A DNA stretch of 64,000 bases, from positions 1,559 to 65,558 of the forward strand of contig JAJKHS010000055.1 in NCBI GenBank assembly GCA_021154885.1, read 5' to 3'. A program made the translations under genes and the position numbers. Below the pieces are notes generated by a model. That model was not told the origin of the DNA and made no database searches. It saw only the letters and a program-made list of their open reading frames with translations. The stretch comes from Thermoanaerobaculum sp. Lineage in GTDB: Bacteria > Acidobacteriota > Thermoanaerobaculia > Multivoradales > UBA5704. This document shows positions 46,955-54,400 of this stretch, one piece after another (the first letter of the stretch is position 1; each line of letters starts with the position of its first letter).

Positions 46955-48142
46955 TCAGGCACCTCGCCTGACGGTGACGACCGTGAAGCCGTCCGTTTCG
47001 ACTTCCAGATCCGGATTTCCATTGCGGGCCAGCATCCGCCGGACCAACCGGACGCCTCGGCCGAGTTGCTCGACGTAACCCAACTCGACGAGCCAGCGGG
47101 TGATGGTGGGATTTCGATAATCGGCATGACTCCCAAACTCGCCCTCGCTGGCGTGGCCAAAGGGACCACCGGGGTTCGAGCAGACGATCCGGTCGTCGAA
47201 CCATTCCACCCGGGCAGGCGCGTTCGTGCCCTCGTAAAGCCGGTGCTGGACGAGATTTCGCGCCAGCTCCCGGAGAGCCTCGAGGGGGTACTCGGGACGA
47301 TAAGGGGTCTTGATCCCCTCGACGGGCGCCGGAATGCTGGCGAGGTGTGCGCTGAGCTGAGCCCAGATCGCCTCCAGTTGGTCGGGCAGGGTGCCGGTGA
47401 TGGTTTTCCGCGCGGCGACCGGAGCATCCACCTCCGTCCCGCCATAGCGGACGAACTCGATCACGGCGCCCGGAAAGAACTCCTGAGGGTTCTGACCAAA
47501 CAGCAGGAGGGCGGCGGCATTGGGGATCCAGGTCTCGCCGATGGTACGCCCCAGGTCCTTCCGCGTGAGCCAGGCCTCCAGAGAGGGGAAGCTCTCGGAA
47601 TCGTGGTTACCCTCCCTCGCCGTTTCGTACATTACGCGTAAAGTGGACACGCGAAGATCTTCGAGCCTCGCCCCGTGAAAGGGCCGGTAGTCGAAGGGTT
47701 GGCGGCTTTCCGGGCGTCTCTCCCGCAGACGGAGGAGGTCGGCTTCCCGGGCGCGTTCCGTGACGGTCCCTCTCCGCACCCAGACCGTGCCGTCGACCGT
47801 GACGACAGGTGGTACGGGGTAGGGCTCAATGCGGACGACCAGGATGGTTCTACCGTCCCTCTGGATGGGCTCCATGCTGTAGGAGGGGGTGGGAACGAGC
47901 TTTACGGAGGAGAGGCGGTTGGCAAGCTTCTGCTGCATCTCGTCGAGATCGCCCTCTACACCGACCACCCGCCCATCATTGGCCAAACCAATAACGAGGA
48001 ACCCAGGACGCCGGCTGTCTCCAAGGTCGTTCGCCAAGGCGCCTGCGGCACGGAGAATGTCTCCCACGTCGGCCGCAGACTGTTTCCATTCCACGCGCTC
48101 GCTCTCTCCAGCGAGCGTATCCCTGAGATCTTCTGGTGTCAT
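46955..48142 (-). CDS. AlbA_2 (Schlafen-like) + divergent HATPase_c domain protein (COG2865-type putative DNA-binding regulator)
   Basis: RVEWKQSAADVGDILRAAGALANDLGDSRRPGFLVIGLANDGRVVGVEG (AlbA_2-like); C-terminal ...NPGGPFGHAS... Confidence 0.5.
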   Translation of the reverse strand: MTPEDLRDTLAGESERVEWKQSAADVGDILRAAGALANDLGDSRRPGFLVIGLANDGRVVGVEGDLDEMQQKLANRLSSVKLVPTPSYSMEPIQRDGRTILVVRIEPYPVPPVVTVDGTVWVRRGTVTERAREADLLRLRERRPESRQPFDYRPFHGARLEDLRVSTLRVMYETAREGNHDSESFPSLEAWLTRKDLGRTIGETWIPNAAALLLFGQNPQEFFPGAVIEFVRYGGTEVDAPVAARKTITGTLPDQLEAIWAQLSAHLASIPAPVEGIKTPYRPEYPLEALRELARNLVQHRLYEGTNAPARVEWFDDRIVCSNPGGPFGHASEGEFGSHADYRNPTITRWLVELGYVEQLGRGVRLVRRMLARNGNPDLEVETDGFTVVTVRRGA

Positions 48143-48267: not shown

Positions 48268-50568
48268 ATGAAGAGCCAACCTCAACTCCCTAGACTTGCC
48301 GTCGGCCTCGCCGTCGGCGCCCTGGTCTTCGCGACGGGGGTGACCCTGGCGCGGCAATGGCTGCCCGATTGGCAAGCCGATCGCCTCGCCCCGCAGGCGG
48401 TCTTCGTTCAGCGTTTCCAGGAGATGGCGCAGGCGGCGGGAATGCGGCTGGACCCCGGCGCTCCCCACGTCGCTTTCGCCAGACCCGACAAGGACCTGGA
48501 CCTGGACGACTCCGTCCTCGATGGGCTGAAGCCGGACAAGGCCGCTGACGTGGGGGTAGGGTTGCTCGTCGACGTAAGGCACCGCGGGAGGTGGCTGGAC
48601 CGCCATGACCGTCCCCGCGAGCTGATCGTCCACTTCTCCGCCTCCGGACACCCCCTGCTCCTCCAACTCGGGACGACGCAGGAGATGGTCACGAGCGCGA
48701 TGCGCAGGGAGGCGGCGCCCGCGCCCGAGTCGCAGGCCCGGCTCGCCCGCCTCCTCCTGCGCCCCGGGGAGAGCCTCGGCCCACCGAGACCGGGGGGAAT
48801 CAAAGGTGCCACGGCAGGATCGACCTACCCGGTCCAGGGGAGCCGGACGGCCCAGCAGATCGTCTCGACCTCTCTGCCGGGAGGTACCCTTCTCCTGCTC
48901 CGGCAACTCGTCGAGCCCGCGGGACAGAGAGCGAACGAAACCGCCGACATCATCGCCCAAGCGGTCCTCGCGGCGTTGCCCCTGGTCGCGGGGTGCGGCA
49001 CCGCCCTCGTCCTCTTCTTCGTCCTGCTCGGGCGCCGCCGGATCAGCCTCGTCGCCGGAGCCTGGCTGGGGACGATCCTCTTCGTGGCCGGGGCGGTGGC
49101 GGCCCTCCGCGGCGATCCGACCTGGGCGGGCCTGCTGAAGATCGTCGGCGCGCTCTTCGTCGCCTTCTGGGCATTCCTGGTCTGGTCGGTCGGCGAGTCG
49201 TACCTGCGCTCGGCGCAGCCGGGGCTGACCGTGGGCCTCGACGCCCTGCGCACCGGGCGGCTCGGTCCCCGGGGAGGCCGCGCGCTGGTGTGGGGCCTCG
49301 CCGCCGGCGCCGCACTGGCGGGGCTGCGGCTGGCCGCGGAAGCCGTCGCGGCACGCCTGCCCAACGCCTGGCCCAGGGGTGGGAGCCTGCGATTGCCGGT
49401 GTTCGACGTCCAGACCCCATTGCACGACGGCGTCATCCTCGCCGGCGGCGTGGCCCTCGCGATGGGGCTCGCCTGGCGGTTCGTGCCTGCGCGCTGGGGC
49501 GGGGCCGTTGCGGCACTCGCCGCCGGCCTGGCCATCCCCTTCGCGTCTCTCCACCCCGCCCCGTTCCAGGCGGTCGTCGGCGTGGCGGCTGCGGCCGTGC
49601 TCGTCTTCCTGATCCAGCGCGTCGGTCTTGCCGCCGGGCTCGCCGCCGCCCTCTGCACCTTCCTGCTCCAGGCCGCGGCCTTCTGTGCGCTCTATGCGGC
49701 CTGGCTCCCCGTCTCTCTGGCCGTGACGGCAGGCACGCCGGCCCTCCTCCTCGTCCTGGGCTTCGTCGGGCTCAGTCGCTCCGGGGAGCCAGAGATCGAG
49801 CAGCTCAAGCAGCCGGCGTTCATGAAGCGCATCGAGGAGGAGCGGCGGCTGAAATACGAGATGGACCTGCTCGCCCGCATGCAGGTGGGACTGCTGCCCA
49901 AGTCCGATCCCGAGATCGCAGGCTGGGACATCGCTGCCCGCTCGTTGCTGGCGACCGAGGCCGGGGGCGACCTCTACGATTTCATCGAGGACGATGAGGG
50001 CCACCTCTGGATCGCCGCCGGCGACGTGGCCGGACACGGCTACTCCTGCTCGATCGCTCAGGCCATGACGGTCGCCGCCCTCTCCAGCCTGGTCGCCGCC
50101 AGCCAGACCCCGGCCGGCGTGCTGCAGCGAGTGGACCGCGTCCTGCGCCGCAACACCCACCGCCACTTCACCACGCTCGCCCTGCTGCGCCTCGATCTGC
50201 GGACGGGTACAGGGCGCCTCGCCAACGCCGGCCATCCCTATGCCATGCTGAGCGCGGAGGGACAGGTTTCAGAGATCCCTCTGGCGGGCCTCCCCTTGGG
50301 CCAGGGTCCGAAACGCCAGTACGCCGACACGGCCCTGGAGATCCCGCCCGGCGCCGCCCTCGTCTTCTCCTCGGACGGCCTCTTCGAAGCCACCGACACC
50401 CGGGGAATCTCCTACGGCTACGATCGCCCGCGGGAGGTGCTCCAGGGCCTCGCCGGAAAATCCGCGCAGGAGATCCTCGAAGGGCTGCTGGCGGACTGGC
50501 GGCTCTACCGGGGCAGTGTCGAGCAGGAGGACGATACGACGGTGGTGGTGGTAAAGCGGGTCGGTTGA
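48268..50568 (+). CDS. polytopic membrane sensor with C-terminal PP2C/SpoIIE-type serine phosphatase domain
   Basis: ~10 TM helices then GGDLYDF...IAAGDVAGHGYSCSIAQAMT...VFSSDGLFEA...DDTTVVVVKRV. Confidence 0.72.
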   Translation: MKSQPQLPRLAVGLAVGALVFATGVTLARQWLPDWQADRLAPQAVFVQRFQEMAQAAGMRLDPGAPHVAFARPDKDLDLDDSVLDGLKPDKAADVGVGLLVDVRHRGRWLDRHDRPRELIVHFSASGHPLLLQLGTTQEMVTSAMRREAAPAPESQARLARLLLRPGESLGPPRPGGIKGATAGSTYPVQGSRTAQQIVSTSLPGGTLLLLRQLVEPAGQRANETADIIAQAVLAALPLVAGCGTALVLFFVLLGRRRISLVAGAWLGTILFVAGAVAALRGDPTWAGLLKIVGALFVAFWAFLVWSVGESYLRSAQPGLTVGLDALRTGRLGPRGGRALVWGLAAGAALAGLRLAAEAVAARLPNAWPRGGSLRLPVFDVQTPLHDGVILAGGVALAMGLAWRFVPARWGGAVAALAAGLAIPFASLHPAPFQAVVGVAAAAVLVFLIQRVGLAAGLAAALCTFLLQAAAFCALYAAWLPVSLAVTAGTPALLLVLGFVGLSRSGEPEIEQLKQPAFMKRIEEERRLKYEMDLLARMQVGLLPKSDPEIAGWDIAARSLLATEAGGDLYDFIEDDEGHLWIAAGDVAGHGYSCSIAQAMTVAALSSLVAASQTPAGVLQRVDRVLRRNTHRHFTTLALLRLDLRTGTGRLANAGHPYAMLSAEGQVSEIPLAGLPLGQGPKRQYADTALEIPPGAALVFSSDGLFEATDTRGISYGYDRPREVLQGLAGKSAQEILEGLLADWRLYRGSVEQEDDTTVVVVKRVG

Positions 50569-50752: not shown

Positions 50753-52522
50753 TTACATCAGCCGCAGATCCCGCTTGATCTCGTTGATCCGCGCCTGGAC
50801 CGCCCCACGGTCCAGGGTGCGGAAGCGCTCCGGCAGCAGCTCGCGGCTGGTGCTTTCAAGGACGGCGCAGAGGATTTGCATCTCCCGTTCCCGCGAGTTG
50901 GCCGGCGGGATGAAGTCGCTGAAGGCCTTCTGCAGATGCTCGGCCTTCACTTCGGAGGAGTCGGCCGCCTCGGCCTCCAGGGTGGCCCGCACCAGCACGG
51001 CTTCGAGGTCCGAGCCGGAGAGGCCCAGGTACTGGTCCTCCGTCGCCACGCTGGAAATAGAGGTCACCGCGGTCTTCAAGCCCAGCTTCTTCAGCATCAC
51101 GCGGTAGATCTCGTCGTACTCGGCCGCCGTCTCCGGGTAGAAGAGGGGAATGTGCTCCTCGGCCCGCCCCTGGCGCTTGAGGTCGATGGGCAGCAGGTCC
51201 GGCCGGGCGGTGATGAGGAACCAGAGGATCCGGCCGCGGTATTGGGTGTCGCCCATGAAGGCGGCGATCTGCGCGAAGACGCGGTTCTGGGTGCCGGAGT
51301 CCCCGGACTGATCGCGATTGCCGAGCGCGGCGTCGGCCTCGTCCACCACCACGCCCACCGGGGTGAGCGAGGCGAGGATCTTCAGGATCCGCTCCAGGTT
51401 GGATTCGGTGGCGCCCACCCACATGGAGCGGAAGTTCTTCAGCTTCACGCACGGGAAGCCGATCTCGTTGGCGAAGCACTCGACGAGGAACGTCTTGGCG
51501 CTCCCCACCGGGCCGCAGATCAGATAGCCCATGGGCACCGCGGCCGGGTTCCCCCGGGCGATGGCCCGGGCGGCGCGGCGCAGACGGTCCTTGACCGCCG
51601 GCATGCCCGCCACCATCGAGAGGTCGAACTTCGGCTCCACGTACTCCAGCAGGCCGAGCCCCTCGGTCTCGATGACCTCCTTTTTCATCGCCCGCACCCG
51701 CTCGCGGGTGAGGTGGTCGCCGTTGGCGTCGGCACCCTCCAGGAGCTGCCCGATCTGCACCCGGGTCATGCCGGCGGTCAGCTCGGCGAGCCGCTGGGGC
51801 GGCAGGTCCGACTTGCTTGCGTACCACTCGGGGAAGCGCACGGCCTGGAGATAGGTGAGCCGCTCGCCCGGGTCGGGACGGACGATCTCGATCTCCCGCG
51901 TCGAATGGGAGCGCACCAGCTTGGGGTCCAGCTCGGCCAGGCTCTCCGTCACCATCACGATGACGACGTTCTTGGCCAGCAGCACCGGGTCCTGCGACCA
52001 CTTGCGGAGATAGACCAGCACAGCCCGGTCCTCCGGCGTGCGGTAGGCCACCTCGGCGGCGGGGACGATCGTCTCGGCGAAGGGCAGCAGGAGCGCCACC
52101 GGCCGCGCCGGCTGGCAGGAGGCGCACTGGAGATAGTAGGAGTCGAGCAGGGCGAAGCAGTTGGGCGCGTCGCGGGGCAGGCCGTCCGCCCAGCCCGTGC
52201 CATGTACGGCGTCGTAGCCCTTCACGAAGCCCTGGAAGTGGTTGCGCGCCGCGGGCGTGGCAAAGCCCAGGCCCTCGGCGCGATTGTAGGTGACGATGGA
52301 CGGCCAGCCGGCGAAGAGCTGCTGGACCAGAAAGTCATCGAGCGACAGGAAGCGCAGCCCGGCCGAGCCGCGCACCGGCACCAGGTCGGCCGGCACGCCG
52401 TGGATGACGAAGGTGTTCGCCTGCTTCGCGGTGATGGCCCGCACCAGCTCCGACGCCCAAGGCGGGAGCGAGTCCAGGAAGACCGGCGGCGAGACAGCGG
52501 CGGTTTCAGGCATCGCAGGCAC
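50753..52522 (-). CDS. classical AAA+ ATPase (Vps4/katanin/CDC48-type single AAA domain with large N-terminal region)
   Basis: Walker [23 protein letters not shown], Walker [10 protein letters not shown], arginine finger region ...[17 protein letters not shown]. Confidence 0.8.
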
Positions 52523-52534
52523 CCGCGGACATCC

Positions 52535-53296
52535 CTAGCCGGCGTCCGGCAGCTTCTGCGGCGCCGCCGCCTGGCCCGTGGCCTGGGTGGGGAACGGCGC
52601 GGCCTCGCGGGTGGCGTCCGGCTTCTTGAGACCCATCTCCACCTCGAACTCCGAGAGCACGCTCTGGGCCTGGAGCTGCCGGGCCTTGCGCTCGTTCTTG
52701 ATGCGGTCGACGTCGAGCCCGCCGGTGGCCACCTCGACGGCGGCCTTGGCCTCGGCGGAGCGCTGCCGGATCTCGTCCAGGTACTTGTCGTTGGTGGCGG
52801 CGGTGCCGTAGGTGTCGAGCTCGGCGATGGCCGAGGCGGCGCTCCGGAGCGCCGAGGCGTTCTTCGACTCGGTGATCGCCTTGCGGCTCTCCTCCATCTT
52901 CTGCCGCAGCTTCTGCTTAATGTCCTCCACCGTGATCTGGGCGTTCTCGAAGGCCTTGCTGGCCGCCGTGAGCTGGTCGGTGGTGGTCTGCAGCTCCTGG
53001 CGCACCTGCTGCAGGCTCGAGGCGTCGTCCTCGGCGAGGCGGCGGGACTCGGGGCTCCCCTCGGTGAGGGCGGCCTTGATCGAGTTGACGAGCTGCTTCT
53101 CCCGGCTCTCCAGGGCCTGCTTGCCCTGCTCCAGGCGGATGACGGTGGCACGGGTGGTGATCAGGATCTGGTTCAGCTTGGGCAGAGTGTTGCGCATCTC
53201 CTCGATCGACTCCTGGAGCATGACCTCCGGGTCCTCGGCGAAGGAGATGAAGTAGCCGATCCACGACTTGATGACTCGGGCGAGGCGGTCGAACAT
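52535..53296 (-). CDS. pspA: PspA/IM30/Vipp1-family (bacterial ESCRT-III-like) protein
   Basis: MFDRLARVIKSWIGYFISFAEDPEVMLQESIEEMRNTLPKLNQ... collinear with PspA N-terminus; long coiled-coil. Confidence 0.8.
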   Translation of the reverse strand: MFDRLARVIKSWIGYFISFAEDPEVMLQESIEEMRNTLPKLNQILITTRATVIRLEQGKQALESREKQLVNSIKAALTEGSPESRRLAEDDASSLQQVRQELQTTTDQLTAASKAFENAQITVEDIKQKLRQKMEESRKAITESKNASALRSAASAIAELDTYGTAATNDKYLDEIRQRSAEAKAAVEVATGGLDVDRIKNERKARQLQAQSVLSEFEVEMGLKKPDATREAAPFPTQATGQAAAPQKLPDAG

Positions 53297-53358
53297 GGCG
53301 ATCTCTCCTGGGATGGGCCCGCGGCATCTCCGCGCCATGGCGGCGCGGGCGGCCAGCC

Positions 53359-54087
53359 CTATTTCGGGTGCGCCTCCGGCGCGGCAGGGGCCGCCGGGCG
53401 GGGCGATTCCGCGGTCGTGATGGGGTTCGCCTCGACGAACGGGTTGACGGCGTCGTACAGCTTGCGCTCCTCGGCGCGCTTGATCACCAGCCAGCGGGAG
53501 AGCTTGGCCTGCTCCGCCTCCAGGGCGATGCGGTTGGCCTCCATCTTCTCCCGGTTGCGGCGGGTGACCTCGTCGATCTCCGCCTGGAGCTGGGCGTTGT
53601 CCTTGTCGAGCTGATCGGAGCGGGAGGCCAGCTTGTTGCGCAGGAACTCCTCGAACTTGTCCAGCGCCTGGTCGCGCCGCACGGCGTCCTGGACGATGTC
53701 GGTGACCGGCACCGGCCCGGAGGGATTCATGTTGAGGAACCCGGTGAGGGCCGCCGCCTTGGCCCGGGCGTCGAGCGAGGCGAAGCCCGGCGAGGCGAAG
53801 ATCTCCAGCACCTTGCTGGCGGTGTAGCCGTGGGGCGGGTCCGTCACCCCGGCGGCCCGGTAGATGGCCGCGAAGTCGGGAACGTCGTCGCCGCTCTCGC
53901 CGTCCCCGGCGGGCAGCTTGGCCGCGTCGATGGCCGGCGGCGCGGGGAGCGTGCCGAGCAGGTCCCGGATGTCGGCGGGCGGCCCCGGAGGCGACGGCGG
54001 GCTCGCCGGCGGCGGCATGGCGGCGGCGCTCTCCTCCGGCGACACCTCCACGAGCTTCATCTTGCTGAGCACTTCCTTGAGACCCAT
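53359..54087 (-). CDS. Pro-rich N-terminus + coiled-coil hypothetical protein, first gene of PspA/AAA operon
   Basis: No domain recognised; coiled-coil heptads in C-half (DKDNAQLQAEIDEVTRRNREKMEANRIALEAEQAKL). Confidence 0.45.
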   Translation of the reverse strand: MGLKEVLSKMKLVEVSPEESAAAMPPPASPPSPPGPPADIRDLLGTLPAPPAIDAAKLPAGDGESGDDVPDFAAIYRAAGVTDPPHGYTASKVLEIFASPGFASLDARAKAAALTGFLNMNPSGPVPVTDIVQDAVRRDQALDKFEEFLRNKLASRSDQLDKDNAQLQAEIDEVTRRNREKMEANRIALEAEQAKLSRWLVIKRAEERKLYDAVNPFVEANPITTAESPRPAAPAAPEAHPK

Positions 54088-54400
54088 GGCGGTTTCCCTC
54101 GGGCTGAAAATCGAAGCCTATGGCCGGGGGCAGGGGGTGTCAAGGAGCGCTCGCATATCCCGGATACCGGCGGCGCAGGAGGGGCAGGGGCACGAGGTTC
54201 GAAAGCGGCACCAGCGATCCGGCGAGCGGGTTGAGATCGGCCATCTCCCGCGGCGTCAGCGGCCGGATCGACAGCACCCGCCGTTGCGGACGCGCCGTCT
54301 GGGGATCGCAACCACGCTCCAGGAATGCCGCCAGGAGCCAGCGGCCGAGGGTACGGCGAGCCGCGTTCACGGAGGGATTGTACTCCGCGGAGAAAGCCGG

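Follow-up and report, generated by a model that had tools for sequence, protein, structure and literature searches.

The locus considered here raises the question whether bacterial ESCRT-III polymers have an AAA remodeller of their own. It lies in a 64,000-nucleotide stretch of contig JAJKHS010000055.1 from Thermoanaerobaculum sp., an uncultured member of the Acidobacteriota (hereafter the window; positions are those of the window unless a related locus is named). PspA and Vipp1 have been identified as ESCRT-III homologues in work that left open whether any bacterial ATPase takes the role of Vps4 (Liu et al. 2021, PMC8281802), and according to a 2025 review a Vps4-like ATPase appears to be absent from bacteria (PMC7619361). 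Ravi, Anantharaman, Aravind, Gennaro et al. (mSystems 2024, PMC11237479) described a dyad of PspA and an "inactive classical AAA + classical AAA" protein in an extended operon, with AEY64320/AEY64321 from Clostridium and OGG56892 from Cand. Handelsmanbacteria as examples. They proposed ATP-dependent membrane remodelling comparable to that of Snf7/VPS4 and called the ATPase "distinct" from VPS4; the VPS4-like genes that passed from archaea to bacteria are a different family, paired with TPR-6TM proteins (PMC11237479). The pairing of PspA with a tandem AAA protein is already known computationally, and the window holds a minimal case of it: the gene of a 242-aa protein (p242), pspA and the gene of a predicted tandem AAA ATPase, a trio that is best explained as a minimal bacterial ESCRT-III-like membrane-maintenance module. 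An earlier note on this DNA, made from the letters alone, had read the locus as a PspA operon with a Vps4-like ATPase that would remodel PspA polymers, and such remodelling has indeed been put forward for pairs of this kind (PMC11237479).

A three-gene operon with a PspA/IM30 protein

Three co-directional open reading frames (ORFs) are present on the minus strand, at 53359-54087 (242 aa), 52535-53338 (267 aa) and 50753-52522 (589 aa), where the earlier note had placed them. Homologues of each of the three proteins are conserved and number in the hundreds to thousands, and the ORFs are therefore genuine genes, not chance ORFs of GC-rich DNA. The middle ORF matches PspA_IM30 (PF04012) with E=5.4e-18 and 65.8 bits, above the cut-off of 33.9, over ORF residues 15-228, and NCBIfam agrees with the Pfam assignments. 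Translation of pspA most likely begins with the ATG at 53296 (MFDRL...) and not with that at 53338, because an AGGAGA Shine-Dalgarno sequence lies 7 nt upstream of the former and the starts of homologues coincide with it. From residue 1 of this form, MFDRLARVIKSW...AEDPE is collinear with LFDRLGRVVRAN...AEDPE of Vipp1 (sll0617; 7o3w; E=1e-6) and with PspA chains. In other words, helix alpha0 is present and the protein is collinear with solved PspA and Vipp1 chains, so that both the family and the collinear N-terminus proposed in the earlier note hold.

For the ATPase the start codon is the ATG at 52513, which gives a protein of 586 aa (589 aa in the ORF form) that is 100% identical to a database protein (P0001) from a metagenome-assembled genome (MAG) labelled Acidobacteria/Thermoanaerobaculia. 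The spacers measure 62 nt between p242 and pspA and 21 nt between pspA and the ATPase gene, and Shine-Dalgarno-like sequences stand ahead of p242 and pspA. Given the tight packing, the short spacers and the recurrence of the same trio with other flanks (see below), p242, pspA and the ATPase gene form one operon.

Linkage of pspA and the ATPase gene across two phyla

A genome scan with one genome per species, using a 15-sequence alignment as query, yielded at least 596 relatives of the ATPase, of which the closest 80 loci were analyzed by ORF calling, iterative hidden Markov model (HMM) searches within the loci and Pfam searches on representatives. Loci were considered informative when their upstream sequence reached 5 kb or more, and of these 53 loci 42 carry a full-length pspA upstream of the ATPase gene on the same strand. 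In one of them the ATPase ORF was called too long and runs into pspA; in all others pspA lies upstream on the same strand. The linkage is thus conserved, in several classes of Acidobacteriota and in Balneolaceae.

The linkage takes four gene arrangements in two phyla. Window-like Thermoanaerobaculia have p242-pspA-ATPase (type a). Other Thermoanaerobaculia and Vicinamibacteria have p242-pspA-TMcc-ATPase (type b), TMcc being a protein of ~295 aa with an N-terminal membrane segment and a long coiled coil. Terriglobia, Bryobacteraceae and Acidobacteriaceae have p242-pspA-PBP/OmpA-BPD permease-ABC ATPase-TMcc-ATPase (type c), and Balneolaceae (Bacteroidota) have thymidine phosphorylase-pspA-PspA C-half paralogue-TMcc-enoyl-CoA hydratase-CNNM/CorC-ATPase (type d). 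Longer operons are also present in cultured species, such as Gracilimonas mengyeensis DSM 21985 (L044) and Fodinibius sediminis DSM 21194 (L027). Most linked loci thus have additional genes between pspA and the ATPase gene, and TMcc is found between the two in 42 related loci. TMcc presumably corresponds to what Ravi et al. described as a "SIG+TM+Snf7" protein; as to a likeness to Snf7, it gave no Pfam match, no PDB sequence match and no hhalign match to PspA. Homologues of TMcc, the PBP/OmpA protein, the permease and the ABC ATPase were all missing from the 64-kb window, and the window locus, with its three genes, is the most reduced form seen in the scan. The same trio occurs at locus L085 with wholly different flanks (an NRPS gene upstream and a PrsW gene downstream) and in a complete genome of 8.8 Mb, which argues that it is a mobile functional unit and that inheritance of a neighbourhood is not the whole explanation.

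Identical architecture and gene order suggest that the window trio belongs to the system of Ravi et al. As in their dyad, a co-directional PspA_IM30 gene accompanies the gene of a ~580-aa protein with a degenerate N-terminal and an intact C-terminal AAA domain, and the type c loci (L030, L043) match their Handelsmanbacteria operon gene for gene. Unlike that dyad, the window has neither the transmembrane "Snf7-like" protein nor the transporter in its 64 kb and has a GSAKT Walker A; its partner p242 is here recognized as a family in its own right.

Two observations concern PspA at related loci. In Balneolaceae, the 140-155-aa paralogue directly after pspA corresponds to the C-terminal half of PspA only (hhalign 98%, E=4e-14). 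At L018:5045-5923, in a MAG labelled Holophagales, pspA is abruptly divergent in its C-terminal half, as would be expected from a frameshift or a faulty assembly.

The ATPase as a predicted tandem of degenerate and active AAA domains

The ATPase ORF matches AAA (PF00004) with E=6.3e-22 over residues 334-459 of its 589-aa form and gives a weak match to AAA_lid_3. The earlier note had seen a single AAA module behind an N-terminal region of about 300 aa; we find two AAA domains, a degenerate D1 and an active D2. The N-region (~295 aa) is assigned to a degenerate AAA domain because, in isolation, it can be aligned weakly but collinearly with Cdc48 D1 over Walker B, the second region of homology (SRH) and the lid; because its profile aligns with that of the protein's own C-terminal half (90% probability, E=1.4e-6, 165 columns, 41 diverse family members), with both the Walker B and sensor-1 strands and the lid in register; and because it retains degenerate motifs. 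The P-loop lysine is missing (HGVPAD), and the Walker B DE is replaced by FAE, whereby the Walker B Asp is lost. A MIT-like domain, for which the earlier note had advised to look here, was not found: the N-region has the predicted AAA fold, and there was no PF04212 match at E<=0.1. Judged from these alignments, the protein is a tandem of D1 and D2 without a separate N-terminal substrate-binding domain.

The motor motifs of D2 are intact. Hundreds of sequences show strict conservation of the Walker A Lys, the Walker B DE (E392 in the window protein), the pore-loop aromatic (W365) and the two SRH arginines, and within the clade the Walker A Lys, the Walker B DE, the MWVG pore loop and the R-x-G-R arginines are invariant. 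Two motifs vary around these residues. GSAKT instead of GTGKT is found only in Thermoanaerobaculia, where it is invariant, and in two Solibacteraceae, other relatives having GTGKT; the window protein has S338 and A339 here. The canonical sensor-1 Asn, present in more distant members (TNRPD), gives way to Ala, Cys or Ser among the scanned close relatives (T[ACS]RPD) and is A436 in the window protein. The D2 lid is collinear with that of Cdc48 D2 and has no insertion, and the C-terminal extension after it is kept across 41 distant family members, with P561 nearly invariant. A search with the N-domain in a library of 1.84 billion proteins gave 874 clusters at 50% identity, and family members are typically 555-610 aa long. 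Some, among them P0254 and P0255, are 485-526 aa long and bear the source names "SpoVK/Ycf46/Vps4".

A Cdc48/FtsH-like rather than a Vps4-like motor

We judged the affinity of the ATPase among AAA proteins from HMM bit scores and the ranking of PDB matches. The NCBIfam scores were 71.9 bits for CDC48 (TIGR01243, cut-off 802.65), 67.5 for FtsH, 60.6 for PAN and 36.2 for CdvC, and the best 60 of 204 PDB sequence matches were all of the Cdc48/p97/VAT/Afg2/NVL/Rix7 type, none of them Vps4. Pfam and NCBIfam scans of the ATPase gave no match to MIT, Vps4_C (PF09336), CDC48_N, CDC48_2, Sigma54_activat or HTH. With MIT and Vps4_C absent, two AAA cassettes, and CDC48, FtsH and PAN all outscoring CdvC, the label "Vps4-like" of the earlier note had to be given up. 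That note had named two things that together would speak against it, clustering of the AAA domain with proteasomal or FtsH-type ATPases and a missing linkage to pspA: the AAA domain does side with the Cdc48, FtsH and proteasomal types, and the linkage is conserved. Its implicit model, in which the ATPase is a true Vps4/CdvC orthologue from archaea that works by MIT-MIM recognition, could draw on source names of the type "SpoVK/Ycf46/Vps4 family" and on the weak CdvC match of 36 bits. It is contradicted by the domain tests: the N-region looks like an AAA fold, the CDC48, FtsH and PAN scores are about twice that of CdvC, and the archaeal-derived bacterial VPS4-like genes of Ravi et al. are another family. 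We consider it scarcely credible.

Comparison with known systems points to the same placement. The window locus resembles the Vps4/CdvC-ESCRT-III pairs in that the gene of an ESCRT-III-superfamily polymer adjoins that of an AAA ATPase of the classical clade whose pore loop is aromatic, and the crenarchaeal cdvA-cdvB-cdvC cluster in its order of a non-ESCRT coiled-coil protein, an ESCRT-III-like protein and an ATPase; it differs in the absence of MIT and Vps4_C, the two AAA domains, the R-x-G-R spacing and a CdvC score half that of CDC48. With Cdc48/p97/VAT the ATPase would share tandem AAA rings, and its D2 is nearest to Cdc48 D2, including an SMW[VFY]G pore loop, but it has no N-terminal double-psi-barrel domain, scores far below the CDC48 cut-off, is only 586 aa long, has lost the catalytic residues of D1 and has a conserved C-terminal extension of its own. 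A catalytically dead D1 is also a feature of Pex1/Pex6, to which the ATPase is similar in this respect. PspF of the E. coli phage-shock system is likewise an AAA+ protein that is genetically linked to PspA, but PspF is a sigma-54 enhancer-binding protein with a helix-turn-helix (HTH) domain that is regulated by PspA, whereas the window ATPase falls in the classical unfoldase clade, and neither a sigma-54 interaction domain (GAFTGA) nor an HTH was found in it. By its domain content, the ATPase thus belongs to a family of its own, being neither Vps4, nor Cdc48 proper, nor PspF.

Two further leads were considered. A role in anti-phage defence was rejected, as PADLOC gave generic AAA-level matches only (IetA 34.7 bits, TRIP13 33.2 bits) and none for p242. 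If the Ycf46 AAA protein of cyanobacteria and plastids does share the degenerate-D1 architecture, it might qualify as a partner of Vipp1; look-ups of literature and cluster names on a kinship of the ATPase with Ycf46 were uninformative.

p242, a large family upstream of pspA

The earlier note had described the first gene product as Pro-rich and coiled-coil, and this description stands. p242 has a Pro-rich stretch at about aa 22-37, a conserved N-terminal motif of 14 aa, MGLKEVLSKMKLVE, and a C-terminal NPITT motif. Its AlphaFold2 model (mean predicted local distance difference test score 77.5, and >90 for aa 140-220) consists of a disordered, Pro-rich segment over the first 65 residues, a small four-helix domain at aa ~70-120 and a 93-residue helix at aa 128-220. 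A single-sequence search gave 695 homologues and a profile search at least 2,721, all of them called hypothetical or given spurious coiled-coil names and none with a Pfam domain; p242 is a large, distinct and unannotated family. It lies immediately upstream of pspA at all 26 scanned loci that have it, and also at L082-L083 and L085. PDB sequence and fold searches gave only generic coiled coils, and no fold could be recognized besides the helical domain and the long helix. The possibility that p242 is a divergent PspA or Snf7 was rejected (hhalign 1.8% against PspA, 21% against TMcc), and no relation to CdvA, PspA or Snf7 was detectable.

Proposed function and alternatives

We tentatively favour a function in which the ATPase would be a hexameric unfoldase that threads PspA to disassemble or remodel its polymers, with p242 as an accessory or adaptor, a reading that we place a little short of probable. 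PspA would polymerize on the stressed inner membrane. In the ATPase hexamer, the degenerate D1 domains would form a structural ring and the D2 domains an active one, and the W-V-G pore loops of the ATPase would pull on PspA subunits, so that the polymer is disassembled, recycled or remodelled. The ATPase would thereby do for PspA what Vps4 does for ESCRT-III, by means of a Cdc48/FtsH-derived motor without a MIT domain, and p242 may act as an adaptor between PspA and the ATPase or as a recruiter or regulator of PspA assembly. Hexamer formation, threading, the choice of PspA as substrate and any role of p242 are what we infer from gene order, spacing, families and motifs. Because the motor is Cdc48/FtsH-like and not Vps4-like, a functional parallel with ESCRT-III/Vps4, if any, would be a convergent recruitment of an AAA unfoldase. 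In a further-reaching version, possible but on the unlikely side, the trio would be a self-sufficient bacterial counterpart of CdvABC, in which p242 recruits or nucleates PspA and the ATPase is a Cdc48-derived, independently evolved equivalent of Vps4 that recycles the polymer.

Several findings weigh against threading of PspA. In most linked loci the gene directly upstream of the ATPase gene is that of TMcc, not pspA, and TMcc could be the primary client. At 11 loci, from Myxococcota, Rhodothermales, Spirochaetales and one Bacteroidia MAG, there is no pspA within 6 kb. In Myxococcota, where orthologues share 43-46% identity, the ATPase gene follows a Ser/Thr kinase-PEGA gene and ABC/FtsX genes, and there the motor seems to have joined another set of partners; given such orthologues without a nearby pspA, it is therefore not obligately tied to PspA. 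No counterpart of the MIT-MIM recognition element was identified in the trio; the conserved "EMG" stretch in the C-terminal part of PspA was considered as a MIM-like site and rejected, since it lines up with ELAALK, a general motif of Vipp1, and is not system-specific. GSAKT and the sensor-1 substitutions may make ATP turnover slow or altered, and the literature yielded no experimental study of the ATPase or of any family member.

These findings can be put together differently. The ATPase may be a general membrane-proximal unfoldase or extractase whose clients are TMcc, transporter components or damaged membrane proteins, with PspA and p242 as stress effectors that are co-expressed in parallel. 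This would account for TMcc standing immediately before the ATPase gene or clustering with it at 42 loci, for the PBP-OmpA/permease/ABC set beside the ATPase gene in Terriglobia-type loci, and for the orthologues in Myxococcota and other groups without a nearby pspA. Yet the window clade has lost TMcc and the transporter while pspA still abuts the ATPase gene, and the trio moves as a unit into new contexts, and we regard the general role as unlikely. Alternatively, the variant Walker A and sensor-1 motifs, together with a D1 that is already inactive, would fit a weak or non-hydrolysing scaffold or regulator that binds PspA or p242 stoichiometrically and keeps PspA assembly-incompetent, comparable to PspF-PspA in E. 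coli. The conserved Walker A Lys, Walker B DE, pore-loop aromatic and SRH arginines instead argue that selection has maintained catalysis and threading; a comparable P-loop (G-x-A-K-S) supports ATP hydrolysis in MCM proteins; and with no sigma-54 interaction domain or HTH found, we consider such a scaffold quite improbable.

Features and surroundings of the locus

The positions of the features are collected in Table 1.

Table 1. Features of the trio in the window, and examples from related loci (given as locus:positions).
Feature	Position	Strand	Basis or remark
p242, 242-aa accessory protein	53359..54087	-	Pro-rich / coiled-coil
PspA/IM30 (ESCRT-III superfamily), 253 aa from ATG 53296	52535..53296	-	PF04012, PDB-chain alignment, Shine-Dalgarno
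Predicted tandem AAA ATPase, 586 aa: degenerate D1, active D2, conserved C-terminal extension	50753..52513	-	Pfam, alignments, profiles
ATPase D1 (aa 1-295), degenerate AAA	51629..52513	-	HGVPAD for Walker A; FAE for Walker B DE
ATPase D2 (aa 296-540), intact classical AAA module + lid	50894..51628	-	PF00004; collinear with Cdc48 D2
Walker A GPVGSAKT	51491..51514	-	clade-specific variant of GPVGTGKT
Pore loop 1, M-W-V-G	51413..51424	-	aromatic-hydrophobic-Gly
Walker B VVVDEAD	51332..51352	-	
Sensor-1 region ITARPD	51197-51214		Ala at canonical Asn
SRH arginines, R-Q-G-R	51164..51175	-	Cdc48/FtsH-type R-x-G-R spacing
C-terminal extension after lid, consensus L..AV.E.TS..LLP..YR	50753..50893	-	family conservation; stop codon included
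Promoter-like TTGACA-N17-TAGGCT	54115..54143	-	read by eye from sequence; putative function
TMcc examples	L012:5103-5984, L030:5105-5998, L044:2856-3740		
Myxococcota kinase-PEGA examples	L076:3246-5879, L052:3117-5918, L070:3898-5931		
Balneolaceae PspA C-half paralogues	L044:2395-2859, L038:2284-2742, L053:2348-2767		

The promoter-like element was read by eye: the end of its -10-like hexamer sits 27 nt upstream of the p242 ATG. A scan for sigma-70 promoters and terminators gave no signal above shuffled expectation; it requires four or more of the six -10 positions to match and does not report TTGACA-N17-TAGGCT. The block CCTTGACACCCC...GGCCATAGGCTT around the element is kept in L002, L003 and L085, at the last despite a different upstream gene. 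At the same position, L007-L009 have GCAAC-N17-CGTA, which resembles a promoter of the extracytoplasmic function (ECF) sigma type.

On one side the trio is flanked by a divergent pair of MarR and Oxidored_FMN (old yellow enzyme) genes, the neighbours that the earlier note had named. On the other lies a convergent gene (48268-50568, plus strand) for a membrane-anchored SpoIIE/PP2C phosphatase of 766 aa, which has a long hydrophobic N-terminal region and its phosphatase domain at the C-terminus; this neighbour is shared with L001 and missing at L085. Further on, the gene at 46955-48142 on the minus strand encodes a putative nucleic-acid-binding regulator of 395 aa, which combines Schlafen AlbA_2 and HATPase_c_4 domains and is unrelated to the trio. 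An antisense ORF of 912 aa (50876-53614, plus strand) runs over the ATPase gene, pspA and part of p242, and is in all probability no gene but an effect of the high GC content (~70%).

Implications

As the smallest version of the system in the scan, without a transporter or a membrane-anchored partner, the window locus lends itself to clean reconstitution in vitro and, being so compact, to asking whether an AAA remodeller is dedicated to the ESCRT-III polymers of bacteria. It also defines p242 as a large unannotated family that lies upstream of pspA wherever it occurs in the loci examined, and indicates that the PspA-linked motor is Cdc48/FtsH-like rather than Vps4-like. Should the trio prove to be a counterpart of CdvABC, the ATPase would be the "missing" ATPase of bacterial ESCRT-III, and p242 would represent a new class of ESCRT-III adaptor.

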